From NCBI GenBank assembly GCA_036009645.1, contig DASYLH010000016.1:2165-66164 (forward strand): DNA of 64,000 nt, read 5' to 3'. A program made the translations under genes and the position numbers. Of the stretch, positions 3,702-30,321 are shown piece after piece (the stretch's first letter is position 1; each line of letters begins with the position of its first letter). Source of the DNA: Conexibacter sp. Lineage in GTDB: Bacteria; Actinomycetota; Thermoleophilia; Solirubrobacterales; Solirubrobacteraceae. The notes beneath the pieces are model-generated. The model was not told the origin of the DNA and made no database searches. It saw only the letters and a program-made list of their open reading frames with translations.

Positions 3702-4525
3702 GGTGAGACGAGGTCCTTTCGTGGATGCGTATCGAGCGGGGGAGAAGGCGTGTGGAGCCAGCCGACGCGCAGTGCGGTGCGGCCGTCGTCGTCGCGCTCA
3801 AGCGCGGCGTCAACGCGCCACACCGCGGCGATGCGCGCCGCGTCGAGCACGTCGTGCGCGAGGCCGTCGGCGACGGTGCGGCCGTCGGCCATCACGACGA
3901 CGCGGTCGGCGACGGCCGCGGCGAGCGCGAGGTCGTGCACCACCAGCACCACGGCGAGCCCCTCATCGGCGAGGCCGCGCAGCAGCCGTGCGACGCCGGC
4001 GGCGGCGCCGAGGTCGAGGTGCGAGGTCGGCTCGTCGGCGATCAGCGCGGGCGCCTCTTGCGCGAGCGCGACGGCGATCTGTACGCGTTGCAGCTCGCCG
4101 CCGGAGAGCGTCGTCAGCATGCGGTCCTCGAACGTCTCGACGCCGGCGCGCGCGATCGCTCGCGCGACCGCGTCGTGGTCTCTGCGCGTCATCCGCTGCA
4201 GCGGGCCGACGTGGGGGGAGCGGCCGATTCGCACCGCGTCGCGGACGGTGAGGCCGGCGGGCACGGGTGGGCGCTGTGGCACGAACGCGCGCAGGCGCGC
4301 GAGCCGGCGCGGGCGCAGGTCGCCCAGCTCGTCCTCGCCCCAGCGCACGGTGCCGCCCGCGAGCCGCTGCAACCCGGCGACGGCGCGCGCGAGCGTGGAC
4401 TTGCCGGCACCGTTGGGGCCGACGACGGCGACCAGCTCGCCGGCTGCGACGTGCAGGTCGGCGCCGTGCAGGATCGGCGTGCCGCCGATCTCGACGCGCA
4501 CGTCCCGGGCATGGAGCAGGGTCAT
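3698..4525 (-). CDS. Iron/heme ABC transporter ATP-binding protein (FecE/HmuV family)
   Basis: GPNGAGKST, LSGGELQRV, LIADEPTSHLD; start ATG 4525 overlaps the permease stop. Confidence 0.92.
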   Translation of the reverse strand: MTLLHARDVRVEIGGTPILHGADLHVAAGELVAVVGPNGAGKSTLARAVAGLQRLAGGTVRWGEDELGDLRPRRLARLRAFVPQRPPVPAGLTVRDAVRIGRSPHVGPLQRMTRRDHDAVARAIARAGVETFEDRMLTTLSGGELQRVQIAVALAQEAPALIADEPTSHLDLGAAAGVARLLRGLADEGLAVVLVVHDLALAAAVADRVVVMADGRTVADGLAHDVLDAARIAAVWRVDAALERDDDGRTALRVGWLHTPSPPLDTHPRKDLVSP

Positions 4526-8755: not shown

Positions 8756-10453
8756 ATGTCGATCGTGACCGATCCCGCCGCCGCCCAGGACGAGCGCGAG
8801 GCGCGCCGGCGCCGTCCCGCGATCGTCGCCGTCGACGACGAGCCGGCGGTCCTCGCCGCTGTCGCGCGCGACCTGCGCCGCGGCTTCGGTGAGCGCTTCC
8901 GCATCGTGCGCGCGAGCTCGGGCGACGAGGCGCTCGGCGTCTTGAGAGAGCTCGTCGCGCGTGGGGATCAGGTCGCGCTGCTCGTCGCTGACCAGCGCAT
9001 GCCCGGGATGTCCGGCACCGAATACCTCGTTGAGGCGCGCAAGTTCGTGCCCGGCGCCAAGCGCGTGCTGCTGACCGCTTATGCCGACACCGAGGCGGCG
9101 ATTCAGGCGATCAACGAGGTCGCCTTGGACTACTACCTGCTGAAGCCGTGGGATCCGCCGGAGGAGCAGCTGTTCCCCGTCGTCGAGGACCTGCTGACGA
9201 CGTGGGAGGCGGGCGCCGCGATCGAGTCCGGCGGCGTGCGGCTCGTCGGCCACCGCTTCAGCCGCGACTCGCACGAGCTGCGCGACTTCCTCGCACGCAA
9301 CCGCGTCCCCGCCCGTTGGCTCGACGTCGAGCGCGACGGCGAGGCGCGCGAGCTGCTCGCAGTCGCGGGCGTCGAGGACACCGGCCTGCCGGTCGCGCTG
9401 CTGGAGGACGGCAGCGTGCTCGAGCGCCCGACCGTGCTTGAGCTGGCTGAGCGGCTCGGCGTCGCTGCGCAGCCGTCGGCCGAGCACTACGACCTCGTGA
9501 TCGTCGGCGGCGGTCCGGCCGGGCTCGCGGCCGCGGTCTACGGCGCCAGCGAGGGACTGCGAACTGTGATGGTGGAGCGCGAGGCCCCCGGCGGCCAGGC
9601 CGGCATGTCGAGCCGCATCGAGAACTACCTCGGCTTCCCCGCCGGCCTGTCTGGCTCGGACCTCGCGCGCCGCGCGACCGACCAGGCGCGCCGCCTCGGC
9701 GCCGAGCTGCTGACGGTGCAGGACGCGGCCGCGCTGCGGGTCGAGGGCTCGGGGCGCTTCGTTGAGCTGACCGGCGGCGGCACCCTGTCAGCCAACACGG
9801 TGCTGATCGCCTCCGGCGTCGCCTACCGCAAGCTGGAGGCGCCCGGCTTCGCCGAGCTGACCGGCAGCGGCATCTACTACGGCGCCGCGCTGACCGAGGC
9901 GCGCGCGTGCAAGGACCAGCACGTCGTCGTGATCGGCGGCGCCAACTCCGCCGGCCAGGCGGCCGTCTACTTCTCCGGCTGGGCCGGCAAGGTGACGATG
10001 CTCGTGCGCGGCGCTGGGCTGGAGTCCTCGATGTCGCAGTACCTGATCGAGCAGATCGCGGGGCTTGAGAACGTCGAGGTGCGCACGCGCAGCCAGGCGG
10101 TCGCAGCCGAGGGCGAGGACGGGCACCTGCGCGCGCTGACGATCCGCGGCGCGGATGGCGCCGAGACAGTCGAGTCGGCCGATGCCTGCTTCGTCTTCAT
10201 CGGCGCTGCGCCGCGCACCGACTGGCTGTCCGAGGTCATCGCTCGCGACGAGCGCGGCTTCATCCTCGCCGGCGCCGACGCGAGAGCGGCCGGCTGGCCG
10301 CTCAGACGCGACCCCTACGTGCTGGAGTCGAGCGTGCCCGGCGTGTTCGTCGCCGGCGACGTGCGCGCGCGCTCGATCAAGCGCGTCGCCAGTGCGGTGG
10401 GGGAGGGCTCGATGGCGGTGTCCTTGATCCACGAGTACTTGGCGGAGGCATGA
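8756..10453 (+). CDS. Receiver domain-thioredoxin reductase-like (TrxB) fusion
   Basis: N-terminal REC (AVDDEP..VADQRMP..LLKPW), glutaredoxin-like middle, GGGPAGLAAA FAD motif, GGANSAGQAA NAD(P)H motif, VFVAGDV. Confidence 0.9.
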   Translation: MSIVTDPAAAQDEREARRRRPAIVAVDDEPAVLAAVARDLRRGFGERFRIVRASSGDEALGVLRELVARGDQVALLVADQRMPGMSGTEYLVEARKFVPGAKRVLLTAYADTEAAIQAINEVALDYYLLKPWDPPEEQLFPVVEDLLTTWEAGAAIESGGVRLVGHRFSRDSHELRDFLARNRVPARWLDVERDGEARELLAVAGVEDTGLPVALLEDGSVLERPTVLELAERLGVAAQPSAEHYDLVIVGGGPAGLAAAVYGASEGLRTVMVEREAPGGQAGMSSRIENYLGFPAGLSGSDLARRATDQARRLGAELLTVQDAAALRVEGSGRFVELTGGGTLSANTVLIASGVAYRKLEAPGFAELTGSGIYYGAALTEARACKDQHVVVIGGANSAGQAAVYFSGWAGKVTMLVRGAGLESSMSQYLIEQIAGLENVEVRTRSQAVAAEGEDGHLRALTIRGADGAETVESADACFVFIGAAPRTDWLSEVIARDERGFILAGADARAAGWPLRRDPYVLESSVPGVFVAGDVRARSIKRVASAVGEGSMAVSLIHEYLAEA

Positions 10454-11862
10454 CCGCGGCGAGCGCTCCGAGCGTCGAGGAGCTGCGCGCGATCGACCTG
10501 TTCGACGGGCTCGACGACGAGCAGCTCGGCGTGTGGGCGGCCGCGGCGCAGACGCGCGACATCGCGCCCGGCGAGGTGCTGGTCGAGCAGGACGCGCCGT
10601 CGAGAGGGCTGTGGCTGCTGCTGGAGGGCGAGGTCGAGTCGCTCGTCGTGGCGGACGGGCGCAGCGAGCGGATCGGCCATCAGGAGGCGCCGACGTGGAT
10701 GGGCGCGATCGCGGCGCTGACGGAGGCGCCGGTCGGCGTCGAGATTCGCGCGATGACCCCGGGGCGGGTCGCGCTCGTGCCGCCCGAGCGGTTCGTCGAA
10801 CTGGCGCTCGCGACGCCGTCGGTGCACCGCAAGGTGATGCAGCGCGTTGGTCCCGTGCTGAGCCGGCTGAGCGCGCGAGAGCAGCACCGCGAGCGGCTCG
10901 CCGCGCTCGGCACGATGGCGGCTGGGCTCGCGCACGAGCTGAACAACCCGGCGGCGGCCGCGAACCGCGCCGCGAGCGACCTGATCGACGCGATTAAGGC
11001 GATCGCTAAGGCGCTCGACGCGTTCGTGGAAGCGGGCGTCGAGCGCGAGGACGCCGAGCAGCTGCTGGCGCTCCAGCGGCAGGCGCTCGACCACGCCGCC
11101 ACCTGCACGGCACTCGACGCGCTGGACGCCGCCGACGAGGAGGACGCGATGCGCGACCGCCTCGAGGACCTCGGCGTCGCCGACGCATGGAGACTTGCGG
11201 AGCCGCTCGCGCGCGCCCGCGTCGACGAGGCGTGGCTGTCCGAGGTCGCCCGGCTCGCCGGCCCGGCGACCGACGCGGCGCTGCGCTGGGTCGCCGCGTC
11301 GCTCACCGCGCGCACGCTCGCGCAGGAGCTGAAGGACTCGACAGAGCGCATGGGCGCGCTCGTCGGCGCGGTCAAGTCGTATGCGTACATGGACCGCGGT
11401 GGGCTCGTCGAGGCTGACGTGCACGAGGGATTGGAGACCACCCTCGTCGTGCTCGGCCACAAGCTCAAGCACACGCGCATCGAGATCGTCCGCGACTACG
11501 ACCGCTCGCTGCCGAAGGTCACCGTCCACGGCTCGGAGCTGAACCAGGTGTGGACGAACCTGCTCGACAACGCGATCGACGCGCTCGGGGAGTCGGGCAC
11601 GATCACGCTCCGCACCTCGCTCGACGGGCCGTGCATCCGCGTTGACATCGCCGACGACGGGCCAGGCATCCCGGAGGCGCTGCGCGCACGCGTGCTGGAG
11701 CCGTTCTTCACCACGAAGGATGCTGGGCGCGGGACCGGGCTTGGGCTCGACACCGCGCGTCGCATCGTCGAGGAGCGCCACACCGGCACGCTTGGCTTCG
11801 ACAGCGGGCCCCAGGGGACGACGTTCCACGTGTGGCTGCCGCTGGAGGGCACCGCGCGCTGA
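10450..11862 (+). CDS. Cyclic-nucleotide-binding-domain histidine kinase
   Basis: N-terminal cNMP fold, AHELNNPAAA H-box, NQVWTNLLDNAIDA, DDGPGI, FFTTKDAGRGTGLGL; ATGA overlap with previous gene. Confidence 0.92.
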   Translation: MTAASAPSVEELRAIDLFDGLDDEQLGVWAAAAQTRDIAPGEVLVEQDAPSRGLWLLLEGEVESLVVADGRSERIGHQEAPTWMGAIAALTEAPVGVEIRAMTPGRVALVPPERFVELALATPSVHRKVMQRVGPVLSRLSAREQHRERLAALGTMAAGLAHELNNPAAAANRAASDLIDAIKAIAKALDAFVEAGVEREDAEQLLALQRQALDHAATCTALDALDAADEEDAMRDRLEDLGVADAWRLAEPLARARVDEAWLSEVARLAGPATDAALRWVAASLTARTLAQELKDSTERMGALVGAVKSYAYMDRGGLVEADVHEGLETTLVVLGHKLKHTRIEIVRDYDRSLPKVTVHGSELNQVWTNLLDNAIDALGESGTITLRTSLDGPCIRVDIADDGPGIPEALRARVLEPFFTTKDAGRGTGLGLDTARRIVEERHTGTLGFDSGPQGTTFHVWLPLEGTAR

Positions 11863-11886
11863 GCGCGCGGCGGCGGGTCCGTCAGT

Positions 11887-12078
11887 TCAGGCGGCGACCG
11901 GCTGCACGCCGCGGGCCTGCAGCGCGTCGACCGAGACGACGCTCACTTCAAGCGTGCGGCAGTTCTCGACGAGTCGCAGCGACCTGTCCTGCGGCAGCTC
12001 GCCGACGACGCCGAGCAGCGTCGTGCCGTCGGTCAGGTAGGAGCCGACGGCGAACAGGTTGGGCATGCGAGTGGACAT
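11887..12078 (-). CDS. Small hypothetical protein (~63 aa)
   Basis: MSTRMPNLFAVGSYLTDGTTLLGVVGEL..LVENCRTLEVSVV; protein-like composition, downstream of XRE gene. Confidence 0.6.
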   Translation of the reverse strand: MSTRMPNLFAVGSYLTDGTTLLGVVGELPQDRSLRLVENCRTLEVSVVSVDALQARGVQPVAA

Positions 12079-12131
12079 GCGAGCAAGCCTACGGTCGCGC
12101 AGTCGCGCCGCCATCAGGGGCGAGCCGCGAG

Positions 12132-12386
12132 CTACGTCGGTGTTTTCCCGTCGTCAACTTCGTAGAGCTCTGCTACGCGCACGCCGAGCGCGTCAGCGAG
12201 GCGCACGACGGTCGTGGAGCGCGGGTCCTTGTTCGCACGCTCGATCTCGCTGAGGTGCTTGGGGTGGATGTCGGCGGCATAGGCGAGCGCCTCCTGCGAC
12301 AGCTCGCGCTCGCGGCGCAGATGCCGGATCGCGCCGGCGAGGGCGAGCAGCTCAGGGGCGGGTGGCGCCAACCGTCTGCGCGTCAT
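12132..12386 (-). CDS. XRE-family HTH regulator (paralogue 1)
   Basis: AIRHLRRERELSQEALAYAADIHPKHLSEIERANKDPRSTTVVRLADALGV; start set at ATG 12386. Confidence 0.9.
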   Translation of the reverse strand: MTRRRLAPPAPELLALAGAIRHLRRERELSQEALAYAADIHPKHLSEIERANKDPRSTTVVRLADALGVRVAELYEVDDGKTPT

Positions 12387-12414
12387 CGAGCCATATCTCG
12401 CTGTGCGAACAACA

Positions 12415-12428
12415 CGAACATATGTTCG
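12415..12428. promoter_or_regulatory. LexA (SOS) box, Gram-positive/actinobacterial type
   Basis: Perfect CGAAC-ATAT-GTTCG upstream of XRE paralogue 1, within a larger TGTGCGAAC..GTTCGCACA inverted repeat (12402-12432). Confidence 0.8.
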
Positions 12429-12458
12429 CACACGACGCAAGTCCGTGCGCCGGTTGTG

Positions 12459-12698
12459 TCAGGACTCGAGCCGCTCGTCAAATGCTCTGAACAGCTCGTT
12501 CGAGCTCAGCTCCAACGCGTCCGCGAGCTTCAGGACCGTCGTGAGGCGTGGGTCCTTGTTCGCCCGCTCGATCTCGCCCACGTGCTTCGCGCTCAGGCCC
12601 GCTTCGTCGGCGAGTGCCTCCTGTGAAAGGTCGCGGTCGCGGCGCGCTTTTCGCAGGGTGCGACCAAAGGCAAGCAACTGTGGTGAGGCGGTACGCAT
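12459..12698 (-). CDS. XRE-family HTH regulator (paralogue 2)
   Basis: FGRTLRKARRDRDLSQEALADEAGLSAKHVGEIERANKDPRLTTVLKLADALEL. Confidence 0.92.
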   Translation of the reverse strand: MRTASPQLLAFGRTLRKARRDRDLSQEALADEAGLSAKHVGEIERANKDPRLTTVLKLADALELSSNELFRAFDERLES

Positions 12699-12794
12699 CC
12701 GTACCGTGAAACCTTCACCACCGATGACGGTTCAGCCACCGTCTCCTGACGGTAATTCTCCACCGGAAGACGGCTTTCTGGCTATAGTCACCCT

Positions 12795-12955
12795 TCCGGC
12801 GTCTTGGCACCCCAGCTTCGCTGACGTGTGACTCCCCCTCACCACGTCAGCACGGCAGGCAGGGGACCGGGTGCCGGTTTCCCCTCACCGAGCTTGGCTC
12901 GGAGCGGGTTGTGCGAGCGCCCCGGGAGCTCCCAGGCCCCGGGGCGTTTGCTGTT
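12795..12955 (+). ncRNA. Candidate structured small RNA (four consecutive hairpins)
   Basis: TATAGT -10-like hexamer at 12783-12788; stems 12820-12851, 12861-12885, 12888-12902, 12918-12946, last followed by TTTGCTGTT. Ends are estimated. Confidence 0.45.
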
Positions 12956-13066
12956 CTCGTTGGCCTCATGGTCTGTGTGCGAACCGGCTCGGGCCGGTCG
13001 CTTGCATTGCGGCGACTATCGCGATATATCTTTACGCATCGAGATATTCCAACGTAAGGAGCCGAG

Positions 13067-13756
13067 ATGTTTCGGTCTACTCCACAATTCGCAGGTGCAG
13101 GACCCGGGGGATGCGGGCACGCCAGCTTCGATCCGCGCTGGCGCGCGATGACCGGTCGTCATGAACACGGCCATGGACCGGGTCGCCACGGTGGCGGTCC
13201 GTACGGACCGGGCGGAGGCGCAGGCTTCCCGTTCGGCTGGGGGCCGATGGGCGGCCCGGGCGGCGGCGGAGGCCGTCGCGGACGGCGCGCACGCCGCGGC
13301 GACGTGCGCACCGCGACGTTGCTGCTGCTCGCCGAGGAGCCGCGCAACGGCTACCAGATCATGCAGGAGCTCGAGGAGCGCAGCGGCGGGGCCTGGCGCC
13401 CCAGCGCGGGGTCCGTCTACCCGGCCCTGCAGCTGCTCGAGGACGAGGGCCTGATCCGCTCCGAGCAGGTCGACGGACGCAAGCTGCTGCATCTCACTGA
13501 TGCCGGCCGCACGCTCGTCGCCGAGCGAGGCGAGGACCAGCCCGCGCCCTGGGATCAGATGGCCGACGACATTCCCGACGACGCACGCGCCATCATGAAG
13601 GTTGTGAAGGAGGTAATGATCGCGACAAGCCAGGTGATGCAGAGCGGCAGCGCGTCGCAGCGCGCGGAAGCGCGCAGACTGCTCGTCAATCTGCGGCGCG
13701 ACCTGTACGGAATCCTCGCCACCGGCGAGGGTGACGACGGCGAGGGTGACGCGTGA
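13067..13756 (+). CDS. PadR-family regulator with His/Gly-rich N-terminus
   Basis: RARRGDVRTATLLLLAEEPRNGYQIMQELEERSGGAWRPSAGSVYPALQLLEDEG; AAGGAG RBS before ATG 13067. Confidence 0.92.
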   Translation: MFRSTPQFAGAGPGGCGHASFDPRWRAMTGRHEHGHGPGRHGGGPYGPGGGAGFPFGWGPMGGPGGGGGRRGRRARRGDVRTATLLLLAEEPRNGYQIMQELEERSGGAWRPSAGSVYPALQLLEDEGLIRSEQVDGRKLLHLTDAGRTLVAERGEDQPAPWDQMADDIPDDARAIMKVVKEVMIATSQVMQSGSASQRAEARRLLVNLRRDLYGILATGEGDDGEGDA

Positions 13757-14730
13757 CCGACCTCGCGGTCCAGGTGCGCGAGTTGGTGAAGCGCTTCGGC
13801 GAGGTCGAGGCGGTGCGCGGCATCGACCTCGACGTCGCCGCCGGCGAGACGTTCGGCTTCCTCGGCCCCAACGGCGCCGGCAAGTCGACGACGATTTCGA
13901 TGCTGTGCACGCTGCTGCCGCCCGACGGCGGCAGCGCGCTCGTCGCCGGCCACGACGTCGTGCGCGAGCGCGACGCCGTGCGCCGCAACATCGGTCTCGT
14001 CTTCCAGGATCCGACGCTGGACGGCTACTTGACGGCCGAGCAGAACCTGCGCTTCCACGCCGAGCTGTACGGCGTGCCGAAGGCGGTCGTGCCGGCGCGC
14101 ATGCAGCTCGTGCTGGAGATGGTCGGCCTGTGGGAGCGACGCAGAAGCCTCGTCCAGACGTACTCGGGCGGCATGAAGCGCCGGCTCGAGATCGCACGCG
14201 GACTGCTCCACGCTCCGCGCGTGCTGTTCCTCGACGAGCCGACGGTCGGGCTCGACCCGCAGACGCGCAGCTCGATTTGGGGGTACATCGAGCAGCTGAA
14301 GCAGGCCGAGGACATCACGATCTTCCTCACCACGCACTACATGGACGAGGCCGAGCACTGCGATCGCATCGCGATCATCGACCAAGGCAGAGTGATCGCG
14401 CTCGACACGCCGGAGGCGCTGAAGGCGAGCGTCGGCAAGGACCGCGTGCAGCTGCAGGTCGACGACACCGACGCGGCGATCGATGCGCTGCGCGAGCGCT
14501 TTGGCCTGGAGGCGACGATCGCCGAGGGCAACGTGACGGTCGCGGTCGAGGGCGGCGAGGCGTTCGTGCCGCGGCTGTTCGCCGAGCTGGGCGTGCCGAT
14601 CCGCGGCGTCAGCGTCGCGCGGCCGTCGCTCGACGACGTGTTCATGTCCTACACCGGCACGACGATCCGCGACGCGGAGTCGGCGGGCGGTCCGGACCCG
14701 CTCGCGCGGATGATGGCGGGGCGGCGCTGA
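13753..14730 (+). CDS. DrrA-type ABC exporter ATP-binding protein
   Basis: GPNGAGKST, YSGGMKRRLEIARGL, FLDEPTVGLDP, TTHYMDEAE. Confidence 0.93.
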   Translation: MTDLAVQVRELVKRFGEVEAVRGIDLDVAAGETFGFLGPNGAGKSTTISMLCTLLPPDGGSALVAGHDVVRERDAVRRNIGLVFQDPTLDGYLTAEQNLRFHAELYGVPKAVVPARMQLVLEMVGLWERRRSLVQTYSGGMKRRLEIARGLLHAPRVLFLDEPTVGLDPQTRSSIWGYIEQLKQAEDITIFLTTHYMDEAEHCDRIAIIDQGRVIALDTPEALKASVGKDRVQLQVDDTDAAIDALRERFGLEATIAEGNVTVAVEGGEAFVPRLFAELGVPIRGVSVARPSLDDVFMSYTGTTIRDAESAGGPDPLARMMAGRR

Positions 14731-27129: not shown

Positions 27130-27200
27130 GCGGGCGAGGTGTTGTGGTTGCACAGGAGCCTTCCAAGCTTCTAGGGCGGGTTCGATTCCCGTCGCCCGCT
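27130..27200 (+). tRNA. tRNA-Gly (anticodon TCC)
   Basis: Acceptor stem GCGGGCG/CGCCCGC, anticodon arm GGAGC-CTTCCAA-GCTTC, T-loop TTCGATT; CCA not encoded. Confidence 0.95.
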
Positions 27201-27216
27201 CTGGCACATAGCACCA

Positions 27217-27290
27217 CGGGGAGTGGCGCAGTCTGGTAGCGCACCCGGCTGGGGGCCGGGCGGTCGCAGGTTCAAATCCTGTCTCCCCGA
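27217..27290 (+). tRNA. tRNA-Pro (anticodon GGG)
   Basis: Acceptor stem CGGGGAG/CTCCCCG, anticodon arm CCCGG-CTGGGGG-CCGGG, T-loop TTCAAAT. Confidence 0.95.
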
Positions 27291-29214: not shown

Positions 29215-30321
29215 TCAGCTGCCAGCGTGCGGTGGCGTGGCGGGTAGTTGCACCGTGACGCAGAGCCCGCCGGCGGCGCGGGGGGTGAGGGTGAGGGTTC
29301 CGTCGTGTGCTTGGGTGATGCTTTTGACGATTGCCAGGCCGAGGCCGACGCCTGCGTGGTCGGTGCGTATGCGTTTGGAGCCGCGCTGAAACGGCTCGAC
29401 AAGCGTGGAAGCCAACTGTGGGGTGAGCGTCGCGCCGGTGTTCTCGACGGTGAGCACCACACCCTTGGGGTGAACGCTGGTCGTGACCCACACGGTGCCC
29501 TGTTCAGGCAGGTTGTGGACGATCGCGTTGTGCAAGAGGTTCGTTGTCATCTGCAGCAGGAGGGCGGGTGAGCCGATGGTGGGGGTCAGTTCGCCGGAGG
29601 TCTCGATGGTGGCGCCGCGTTCCTCTGCGAGGGGGAGGAGCGTTTCCGTGGCTTCTTCGGCTATGAGTGACAGGTCGGCGTGTTCTCGGACGAAGGACCG
29701 CTGGTCGGCGCGGCTGAGCAGGAGCAACGCTTCGGTGAGGTCGATCGCTCGGGTGTTGACGAAGTGGAGGCGCTCGACAAGTTCGTCGTTGCCGCGGCTT
29801 TGATCGTTGCGGGCCACGTCGAGGAGCGTCTGCGTGATCGCCAGCGGGGTGCGCAGCTCATGGGAGGCATTGGCTGCGAATCGCTGCTGTTCGGCGACGC
29901 GTGCCTCGAGTCGCGCAAGCATGGTGTCGAAGGCGTCGGCGAGCTCGCGGAACTCGTCGTTGCGGCCTTCCAACGCGATCCGGTGGGAGAGCGATCCGGT
30001 CGCGGCGACGCGTGTGGCGTCGGAGATCCGTTCCAAGGGAGCGAGCATCCGTCCGGCCAGAAGCCACCCCCCGACGAGACCGAACACCAGGAGGAAGGCC
30101 AGCACCACGACTGCCGCCGTGCCGAAGACGCCTGGGCCAAAGTTGGTGGGGTTGAAGACGCGCGGGAAGTTGGAGAACCTGGGAACGAGGCTGCTGGCGG
30201 GATAGTCTCGCAAGAGGAACACCCAGACGGCCGCGAGCATCAGGGCGCCAGCGATCATGAGGAAGCCGGCGTAGCTGAGGGTGAGCTTGAGGCGGACGCT
30301 CAAGCCCGGGGCCCTATCCAC
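29215..30321 (-). CDS. vanS: VanS sensor histidine kinase (actinobacterial type)
   Basis: GTG start; LSVRLKLTLSYAGF, HAMP, FAANASHELRTPLAI, NLLHNAIVHN, GVGLGLAI; adjacent to vanR. Confidence 0.9.
   Translation of the reverse strand: MDRAPGLSVRLKLTLSYAGFLMIAGALMLAAVWVFLLRDYPASSLVPRFSNFPRVFNPTNFGPGVFGTAAVVVLAFLLVFGLVGGWLLAGRMLAPLERISDATRVAATGSLSHRIALEGRNDEFRELADAFDTMLARLEARVAEQQRFAANASHELRTPLAITQTLLDVARNDQSRGNDELVERLHFVNTRAIDLTEALLLLSRADQRSFVREHADLSLIAEEATETLLPLAEERGATIETSGELTPTIGSPALLLQMTTNLLHNAIVHNLPEQGTVWVTTSVHPKGVVLTVENTGATLTPQLASTLVEPFQRGSKRIRTDHAGVGLGLAIVKSITQAHDGTLTLTPRAAGGLCVTVQLPATPPHAGS

Follow-up and report, generated by a model that had tools for sequence, protein, structure and literature searches.

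The 64,000-nucleotide stretch of Conexibacter sp. DNA considered here (the window) contains an intergenic region of 368 nucleotides (nt) between XRE1, a small gene of the XRE family on the minus strand (12459..12698), and a gene of the PadR family on the plus strand (13067..13756). The question raised by this locus is whether the region holds a non-coding RNA gene and, if it does, what such an RNA might do. An initial annotation, made from the window sequence, had proposed a novel small RNA (sRNA) divergent from the XRE genes, with a loop resembling an anti-Shine-Dalgarno sequence and with four hairpins. The region holds an RNA element of ~160 nt on the plus strand, at about 12795-12955, and this is very probably a real structured RNA gene. 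Its gene-like anatomy, strand, structure, conservation and synteny are shown by the analysis. The proposal holds as far as it describes a structured plus-strand non-coding unit that is absent from Rfam 15 and syntenic with a divergent XRE gene, but one of the four hairpins is not a conserved fold.

Structure and conservation of the RNA

The family consists of ~36 distinct sequences, of which 28 are full-length and of the main type, one is truncated and seven are divergent (L163, L199, L201 and L206-L209). A protein search with PadR led to 80 Solirubrobacterales loci, and the intergenic DNA was recognisable in only five of them. More copies were obtained from DNA-pattern scans of genomes in GTDB and of JGI metagenome contigs, and from a protein search with XRE1, with confirmation by nhmmer and covariance models. 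The pattern matches L179, L183 and L195 (metagenome) and most of L081-L160 (genomes) were dismissed as chance. The carriers are 16 GTDB species-level genomes, all from Conexibacter or close relatives; among them is the type strain C. arvalis DSM 23288 (NZ_JACHNU010000006.1), which is in culture. The copy in C. arvalis is of a divergent 'type B' and lies at about 4001-4167 of its locus (L206, minus strand of the locus), where the XRE1, XRE2 and PadR neighbours are kept. Main-group sequences are 75-80% identical on average. Each locus, like the window itself, has one copy of the RNA, and a pattern scan of viral contigs found no copies; an origin as a repeat or mobile element is rejected for these reasons.

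The plus strand of 12790-12960 folds to -94.7 kcal/mol (z = -4.40), and none of 200 dinucleotide shuffles folds as well. For the minus strand z is -1.67, and 12 of 200 shuffles do equally well. In C. arvalis the homologue has z = -3.14 on the RNA strand versus -1.33 on the opposite strand. In the covariance-model alignment of 28 distinct sequences, 95.8% of the cells at paired positions hold standard pairs, versus 39-46% with the partners slid. Double-sided changes are found at 25 of the 57 pairs in the same alignment, versus 9.5 +/- 1.9 in column shuffles (0 of 500 shuffles reach the observed value). An independent MAFFT alignment with an RNAalifold structure gives a similar picture, with 98.3% of cells paired versus 33-52% slid and 11 double-changed pairs versus 2.9 shuffled. 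The paired cells include 194 G.U and 21 A.C combinations, and because G.U far outnumber A.C, the helices exist on the plus strand only. Covariance analysis of homologous loci had been suggested alongside the initial annotation, which also allowed for a known repeat or a remnant without covariation. Covariation is present in every helix of what is a single-copy element.

The predicted structure begins with a long irregular hairpin (Domain 1) made up of three consecutive helices, P1, P2 and P3, and continues with two further hairpins, P4 and P5 (Table 1). The third helix corresponds to the hairpin GCTGACGT-GTGA/TCAC-C-ACGTCAGC at 12820-12851, with CTCCCCC as its loop, that had been picked out at the start. 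In one homologue (L004) P1 carries a compensatory CCAG/CUGG. In the seven divergent members P1-P3 are rewritten completely, and UGCGCGC/GCGCGCA or GCGCGCC/GGCGCGC replaces GCUGACGU/ACGUCAGC in the P3 stem. The five divergent sequences that can be aligned over their full length (L163, L199 and L207-L209) nevertheless retain 42-49 of the 57 pairs in the model and differ from the window by 11-21 double changes. In P4 the inner stem, recognised earlier as CCGAGC/GCTCGG at 12888-12902, covaries throughout: all five of its pairs are changed on both sides, and it differs in almost every lineage yet always pairs. Each homologue, when folded singly, forms the P4 hairpin. Unpaired internal positions are also conserved, for example ACGGCA at 12852-12857.

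The remaining hairpin in this part of the RNA, AGGGGACCGG/CCGGU..UCCCCU at 12861-12885, is present in the window and can form there, as had been suggested (with the sequence given as CCGGT..TCCCCT), but it is rejected as a conserved helix. Only 81% of its cells are paired, there is no covariation above the slid controls, and L003 and L004 are without its inner stem. Its two strands are instead taken up by long-range pairing in P1 and P2 and by the base of P4. The GGGG at 12862-12865 could pair with either the 5' C-run, as in P2, or the 3' C-run, and an alternative conformer may exist; the supported fold is P1/P2.

The last hairpin, P5, corresponds to GCGAGCGCCCCGGG...CCCGGGGCGTTTGC at 12913-12951, followed by TGTTCTCGT, which the initial annotation had listed as a hairpin. 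It is 97% paired, with six pairs changed on both sides. In L163 and L209 the P5 sequence CGCCCCGG/CCGGGGCG is replaced by CGCUCCGG/CCGGAGCG, and in the terminator core, CGC(C/U)CCGG...CCGG(G/A)GCG, the sole variable pair changes in a compensatory way. A terminator scan picks up the apical part of this hairpin.

Coding potential is rejected, since no open reading frame (ORF) is common to the 28 homologues; the longest ORFs differ among them or are absent. This agrees with the earlier statement that no credible coding sequence lies here. An Rfam search had also been suggested, and Rfam 15, applied to the whole window at gathering thresholds, has no family at this RNA. Focused scans at E <= 10 covered 12600-13150 of the window, 2080-2340 of L163 and 3980-4200 of L206 and gave chance matches only (mir-2834, Pxr, Methylobacterium-1 and similar). 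In the same three regions and at the same threshold, the covariance model of the actinobacterial 6C RNA (RF01066) has no match.

Three elements are constant across the family, namely TATAGT(C) ahead of P1 (AATAGT once), the loop core UCCCCCU and the terminator core. The alignment columns T44-A52 (TCCCCCTCA) are invariant in 28 of 28 sequences. The UCCCCCU core is also kept in L163, L199, L201 and L206-L209, despite an entirely different flanking stem sequence. Because absolute sequence constraint is limited to this 7-nt loop while the stems drift, the loop is read as a candidate pairing seed. In divergent members a second C-rich loop is found on P4, with the sequence CUCCCCC in L163 and CACCCC in L199, L201 and L206-L208.

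Table 1. Positions of the RNA, its control elements and the flanking genes in the window
Feature	Position	Strand	Description
XRE2	12132..12386	-	84-aa helix-turn-helix (HTH) paralogue, ~57% identical to XRE1 (Pfam)
XRE1	12459..12698	-	79 aa, HTH_3/HTH_31; Pfam HTH_3 E = 2.4e-12; divergent from the RNA; neighbour in every locus checked
Shared divergent control region	12718..12773		Three CCACCG..GACGG(T) inverted-repeat units; GACGG at 12726, 12748 and 12769 (21-22 bp spacing)
Candidate -10 hexamer TATAGT	12783..12788	+	Predicted transcription start ~12794-12796, at the foot of P1
Domain 1 (P1+P2+P3)	12796..12877	+	Long irregular hairpin
P1	12796-12807 with 12867-12877	+	93.6% paired; 3 pairs changed on both sides
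P2	12810-12818 with 12857-12865	+	97.7% paired; 2 pairs changed on both sides
P3	12820-12831 with 12839-12851	+	Loop CUCCCCC 12832-12838; 97.9% paired; 6 pairs changed on both sides
Apical loop CUCCCCC	12832..12838	+	Universal core UCCCCCU 12833-12839; presumed seed/recognition element
P4	12883-12893 with 12897-12908	+	CCC/GGG base; hypervariable inner stem (CCGAGC/GCUCGG in the window); loop UUG
P5 and tail	12913..12960	+	Hairpin 12913-12930 with 12935-12951, GC-rich, resembling an intrinsic terminator; tail UGUUCUCGU contains U
PadR promoter/operator	13002..13030	+	TTGCAT-17 bp-TATATC overlapping the palindrome ATCGCGATATATC; outside the RNA; conserved in RNA-bearing loci
PadR-family gene	13067..13756	+	ATG at 13067
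ABC-transporter ATPase	13753-14730	+	Overlaps the PadR gene; DrrA1-3 C-terminal domain

Promoter region, boundaries and flanking genes

The TATAGT that the initial annotation had placed at 12783 occurs in 26 of the 27 aligned main-type upstream regions (L095 has AATAGT instead) and in each of the seven divergent members. The hexamer is bordered on each side by 3-4 variable nt. TATAGT(C) sits 6-8 nt ahead of P1. Between this candidate promoter and XRE1 lies a control region shared by the two divergent genes, and the 85 bp from the XRE1 start to TATAGT hardly vary. Across 27 loci the sequence of the control region is almost unchanged, and it can still be recognised in the divergent members. The GACGG spacing of the repeat units in this region equals two helical turns, and the last unit falls at the -35 position of the RNA promoter. 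The neighbouring XRE protein or proteins could use the three units as operators, within what would be a back-to-back divergent promoter pair. The XRE1 start codon lies inside a palindrome of the form GGTAC-N6-GTACC (GGTACGCATCCGTACC), at 12690-12705, and of the aligned loci only L004 does not conserve this palindrome. It may serve as an operator for autoregulation or as an RNA hairpin by which the start codon is sequestered.

Directly upstream of XRE2, at 12413-12430, there is a perfect GAAC-N4-GTTC palindrome (CACGAACATATGTTCGCA), which we take to be of the LexA/SOS-box type of Actinobacteria. This box is identical or nearly so in every XRE2-bearing locus and is absent from L162, which is without XRE2. 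In L163, which has a single XRE gene, a LexA-type box is found ~60 bp from the RNA promoter.

The order of the genes, with XRE1 and then XRE2 reading away from the RNA on one side and PadR and then the ABC transporter gene reading in the direction of the RNA on the other, is kept in every locus with enough flank. In the upstream alignment, the region of the XRE1 start codon adjoins the RNA in 27 of 27 contigs whose flank is 100 nt or longer. The RNA is absent, as are the XRE genes, from 75 related Solirubrobacterales PadR-ABC loci, and XRE1 paralogues at other genomic sites (L164-L166) are without it. The promoter and operator of PadR are followed by an AAGGAG Shine-Dalgarno sequence (together 13002-13066). 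The operator-like motif is found upstream of PadR in distant Solirubrobacterales without the RNA as well (L047, L049, L068 and L072), and the spacer between P5 and the PadR promoter varies by tens of nt. Since the PadR gene has its own promoter downstream of the terminator, and this promoter is present in RNA-less genomes too, it is independent of the RNA promoter. The 75 PadR-ABC loci with neither XRE genes nor RNA, the XRE1 paralogues elsewhere that lack it and the retention of a separate PadR operator tie the RNA to the XRE1 locus and not to PadR, and a link with PadR rather than XRE is rejected on these grounds.

In the PadR protein, the winged-helix domain is preceded at the N-terminus by ~75 additional aa with a high content of Gly and Pro. 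The domain layout of the ABC ATPase is like that of daunorubicin-resistance-type exporters. Beyond XRE2, a 75-aa ORF (11887-12114, minus strand) begins 17 nt past the XRE2 stop, with no Shine-Dalgarno sequence and no Pfam or NCBIfam match. It is conserved at 62-75% in some loci only (L005, L121, L125 and L153), and its status as a gene is uncertain.

Possible mode of action and competing explanations

By analogy with C-rich-loop RNAs of other Actinobacteria, the most likely function of the RNA is that of a trans-acting sRNA that pairs with its targets through the C-rich loop, a reading to which we give about even credence. The course of events that we infer for its transcription, mode of action, targets and regulators is as follows. 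Transcription would start just past TATAGT and end at P5, before the separate PadR promoter. The RNA would fold into the three-helix hairpin P1-P2-P3, the hairpin P4 and the terminator P5, and the UCCCCCU loop would pair in trans with G-rich, Shine-Dalgarno-like stretches of target mRNAs. Such pairing would repress translation or alter mRNA stability in a chaperone-independent manner, as for the actinobacterial 6C RNA. XRE1 would set the expression of the RNA from the shared divergent control region, and XRE2, with its LexA-type box, might provide an indirect DNA-damage input. Control of the RNA by XRE or the SOS response, which the initial annotation had also put forward, is possible but doubtful. 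An extended form of this idea, in which an XRE switch linked to DNA damage has the RNA as its riboregulatory output, appears unlikely; here XRE2 would be LexA-controlled, XRE1 would toggle two overlapping back-to-back promoters (its own and that of the RNA) from the three repeat units, and the loop would silence a regulon of mRNAs with G-rich ribosome-binding sites.

Several observations weigh against a base-pairing sRNA under such control. The U tail of the predicted terminator is weak (UGUUCUCGU/CGUU). A generic sigma-70 scan found no -35/-10 pair, and no canonical -35 is present, so the -35 of the RNA promoter would be non-canonical. There is no LexA-type box at the RNA promoter in the window, the only box in 11000-14500 being that at XRE2, ~370 bp from TATAGT, and a LexA link to the RNA can for this reason only be indirect. 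Searches of sequencing runs for the window sequence and for C. arvalis gave DNA metagenomes from soil almost exclusively, and no RNA-seq of an isolate. The sole near-identical contig in an RNA-Seq-labelled metagenome (X25) has 151 nt at a depth of 2 and spans 12715-12865, thus crossing the predicted promoter, and the adjacent XRE genes have zero coverage in this run; the contig may represent DNA carry-over, read-through or a different transcription start. Target prediction with the C-rich loop, which had been suggested as a further check, gave no convincing complementary site at a real start codon within the window of 64 kb. A perfect 9-mer complement of the loop occurs there only once, at 29629-29637, antisense to a histidine-kinase gene, and an RNAduplex ranking over all candidate starts in the window contained nothing interpretable. 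The initiation regions of XRE1, XRE2 and PadR, inspected by eye with no duplex computed, are without a G-run complementary to the loop.

The lack of a local target, together with an RNA that is almost fully double-stranded, is also what would be expected under the main alternative, an RNA that binds protein instead of pairing, in which the P1-P2-P3 rod would titrate or scaffold a protein such as a poly-C/KH-type binder, a ribosomal component or either adjacent regulator. The conserved internal ACGGCA fits this alternative equally well, and the main group is strongly conserved in the loop, the unpaired internal positions and P1/P2 alike. However, in the divergent members only UCCCCCU is kept while P1-P3 and the internal loops have changed completely, a pattern more typical of a short seed, and the characterised actinobacterial C-rich-loop RNAs act by pairing. 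We regard a protein-binding role as the lesser prospect, although one to be taken seriously. The RNA could also be a cis-acting leader or attenuator of the PadR-ABC operon, with a stop at P5 and signal-dependent read-through into the PadR gene by means of a riboswitch or protein-dependent antitermination. It is co-oriented with this gene and lies directly upstream, ~110 nt before the ATG, and it is syntenic with PadR-ABC wherever a locus has enough flank. Set against this are the independent, conserved PadR promoter/operator between P5 and the gene, the same motif in RNA-less genomes, the variable spacer and the conservation of PadR-ABC in the 75 loci without the RNA. In addition, Domain 1 is a linear hairpin and forms no multi-helix junction of the aptamer kind, and a leader function seems improbable.

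Two further explanations would remove the plus-strand RNA altogether. The structure could belong to the minus strand, as a long 5' untranslated region of XRE1 or its cis-antisense partner, with the plus-strand reading misoriented. XRE1 is indeed transcribed leftwards from within the intergenic region, and the RNA-Seq-labelled contig spans the predicted plus-strand promoter. The excess of G.U over A.C combinations, however, means that on the minus strand the helices would contain many mismatches, and the fold of this strand is also no better than shuffles. By eye, with no formal scan, no TANNNT-like element is seen on the minus strand inside the RNA body in the alignment, and a plausible XRE1 promoter (TAGCCA-18-GAGAWT, minus strand, ~12752-12786, also read by eye) lies upstream of that body. 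This orientation is very unlikely. The narrow distribution of the element in Conexibacter and the average identity within the main group could mean that no functional RNA exists, and that operators, a stray terminator or other DNA-level palindromes, or a decaying repeat or mobile-element remnant, are kept by close kinship. Compensatory changes in every helix, the complete rewriting of stems in divergent members, the strand asymmetry of the wobble pairs, the single copy per locus and window, the absence from viral contigs and the fixed position and orientation all speak against such an origin, which is scarcely credible.

Relation to described RNAs and other features of the window

The RNA appears to be a new family of a known kind, the C-rich-loop sRNAs of high-GC Gram-positive bacteria. 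In the literature, no sRNA was found described for Conexibacter or Solirubrobacter. Among the RNAs of this kind is 6C, which is named B11 in mycobacteria and cgb_03605 in C. glutamicum. Members of the 6C family are defined by at least six conserved cytosines in each of two loops and by a two-stem-loop structure of ~80 nt (PMC5014011). The C-rich loops of the mycobacterial 6C sRNA bind G-rich ribosome-binding regions, such as AGGGGGG of panD, without Hfq or ProQ, and high-GC Gram-positive bacteria are reported to lack both of these proteins (PMC6486639). The 6C RNA of C. glutamicum responds to mitomycin C and to the loss of LexA and is linked to the SOS response (PMC5014011).

The present RNA resembles 6C in being an actinobacterial small RNA with a run-of-C apical loop, or loops, on GC-rich hairpins, and the likeness extends to the two C-rich loops of the divergent members L163, L199, L201 and L206-L208. 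However, it is ~160-170 nt long and has five helices, versus the ~80-nt two-stem-loop core of 6C. The copy in the window has one C-rich loop, the P4 loop being UUG, and the gene is set in an XRE/PadR-ABC intergenic region. Because the covariance model fails and the two-loop, ~80-nt architecture is not found, the RNA is not a 6C member. It is an analogue of 6C and not a demonstrated homologue, and it may work in a similar way.

Exposed C-rich motifs that target G-rich Shine-Dalgarno regions are also found in the RsaE/RoxS-type sRNAs of Firmicutes, which end in a Rho-independent terminator. These differ from the present RNA in phylum, sequence and structure, to all of which they are unrelated, and no Rfam family matches at the RNA. 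A gene arrangement of the type initially proposed is found in M. tuberculosis, where the sRNA gene Mcr11 is reported to lie next to the gene of AbmR, a DNA-binding regulator that controls its expression (PMC7064933). The likeness consists of an sRNA gene beside the gene of a DNA-binding regulator; the regulator here is a small XRE-family HTH protein, one of a tandem pair, whose control of the RNA is putative, and the sequences are unrelated. Among bacterial sRNAs, the focused scans rank Pxr (RF01812) highest; it is likewise a multi-hairpin sRNA with a C-rich loop and aligns with 12865-12955. The score of 17.2 bits, versus a gathering score of 80, is at chance level (E = 1.5), and the match covers the terminator half only.

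The locus thus offers an RNA family that is well supported and has a clear candidate seed, a constant regulatory neighbourhood (the tandem XRE pair and the LexA-type box) and a cultured carrier in C. arvalis DSM 23288, and because of the seed, the neighbourhood and the carrier the RNA is directly testable. If a 6C-like mechanism proves true, pairing through C-rich loops would seem to be a recurrent solution in high-GC bacteria, again linked to a DNA-damage-associated locus. If it proves false, the RNA would still be a clean new entry for RNA family databases. Were the RNA to be the output of an XRE switch, its circuit would be the first of the sRNA kind on record for the class Thermoleophilia, and the connection between 6C RNA and the SOS response in Corynebacterium would have a counterpart here that either evolved independently or has diverged extremely.

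Elsewhere in the window, among the upstream neighbours, a 565-aa ORF (8756-10453) is followed by a 470-aa ORF (10450-11862) that overlaps its stop. The C-terminal half of the 470-aa product, judged from the translation by eye, presumably resembles a histidine-kinase ATPase domain. Two neighbouring tRNA genes on the plus strand, at 27130-27200 and 27217-27290, are the sole Rfam matches in the window at the gathering threshold.

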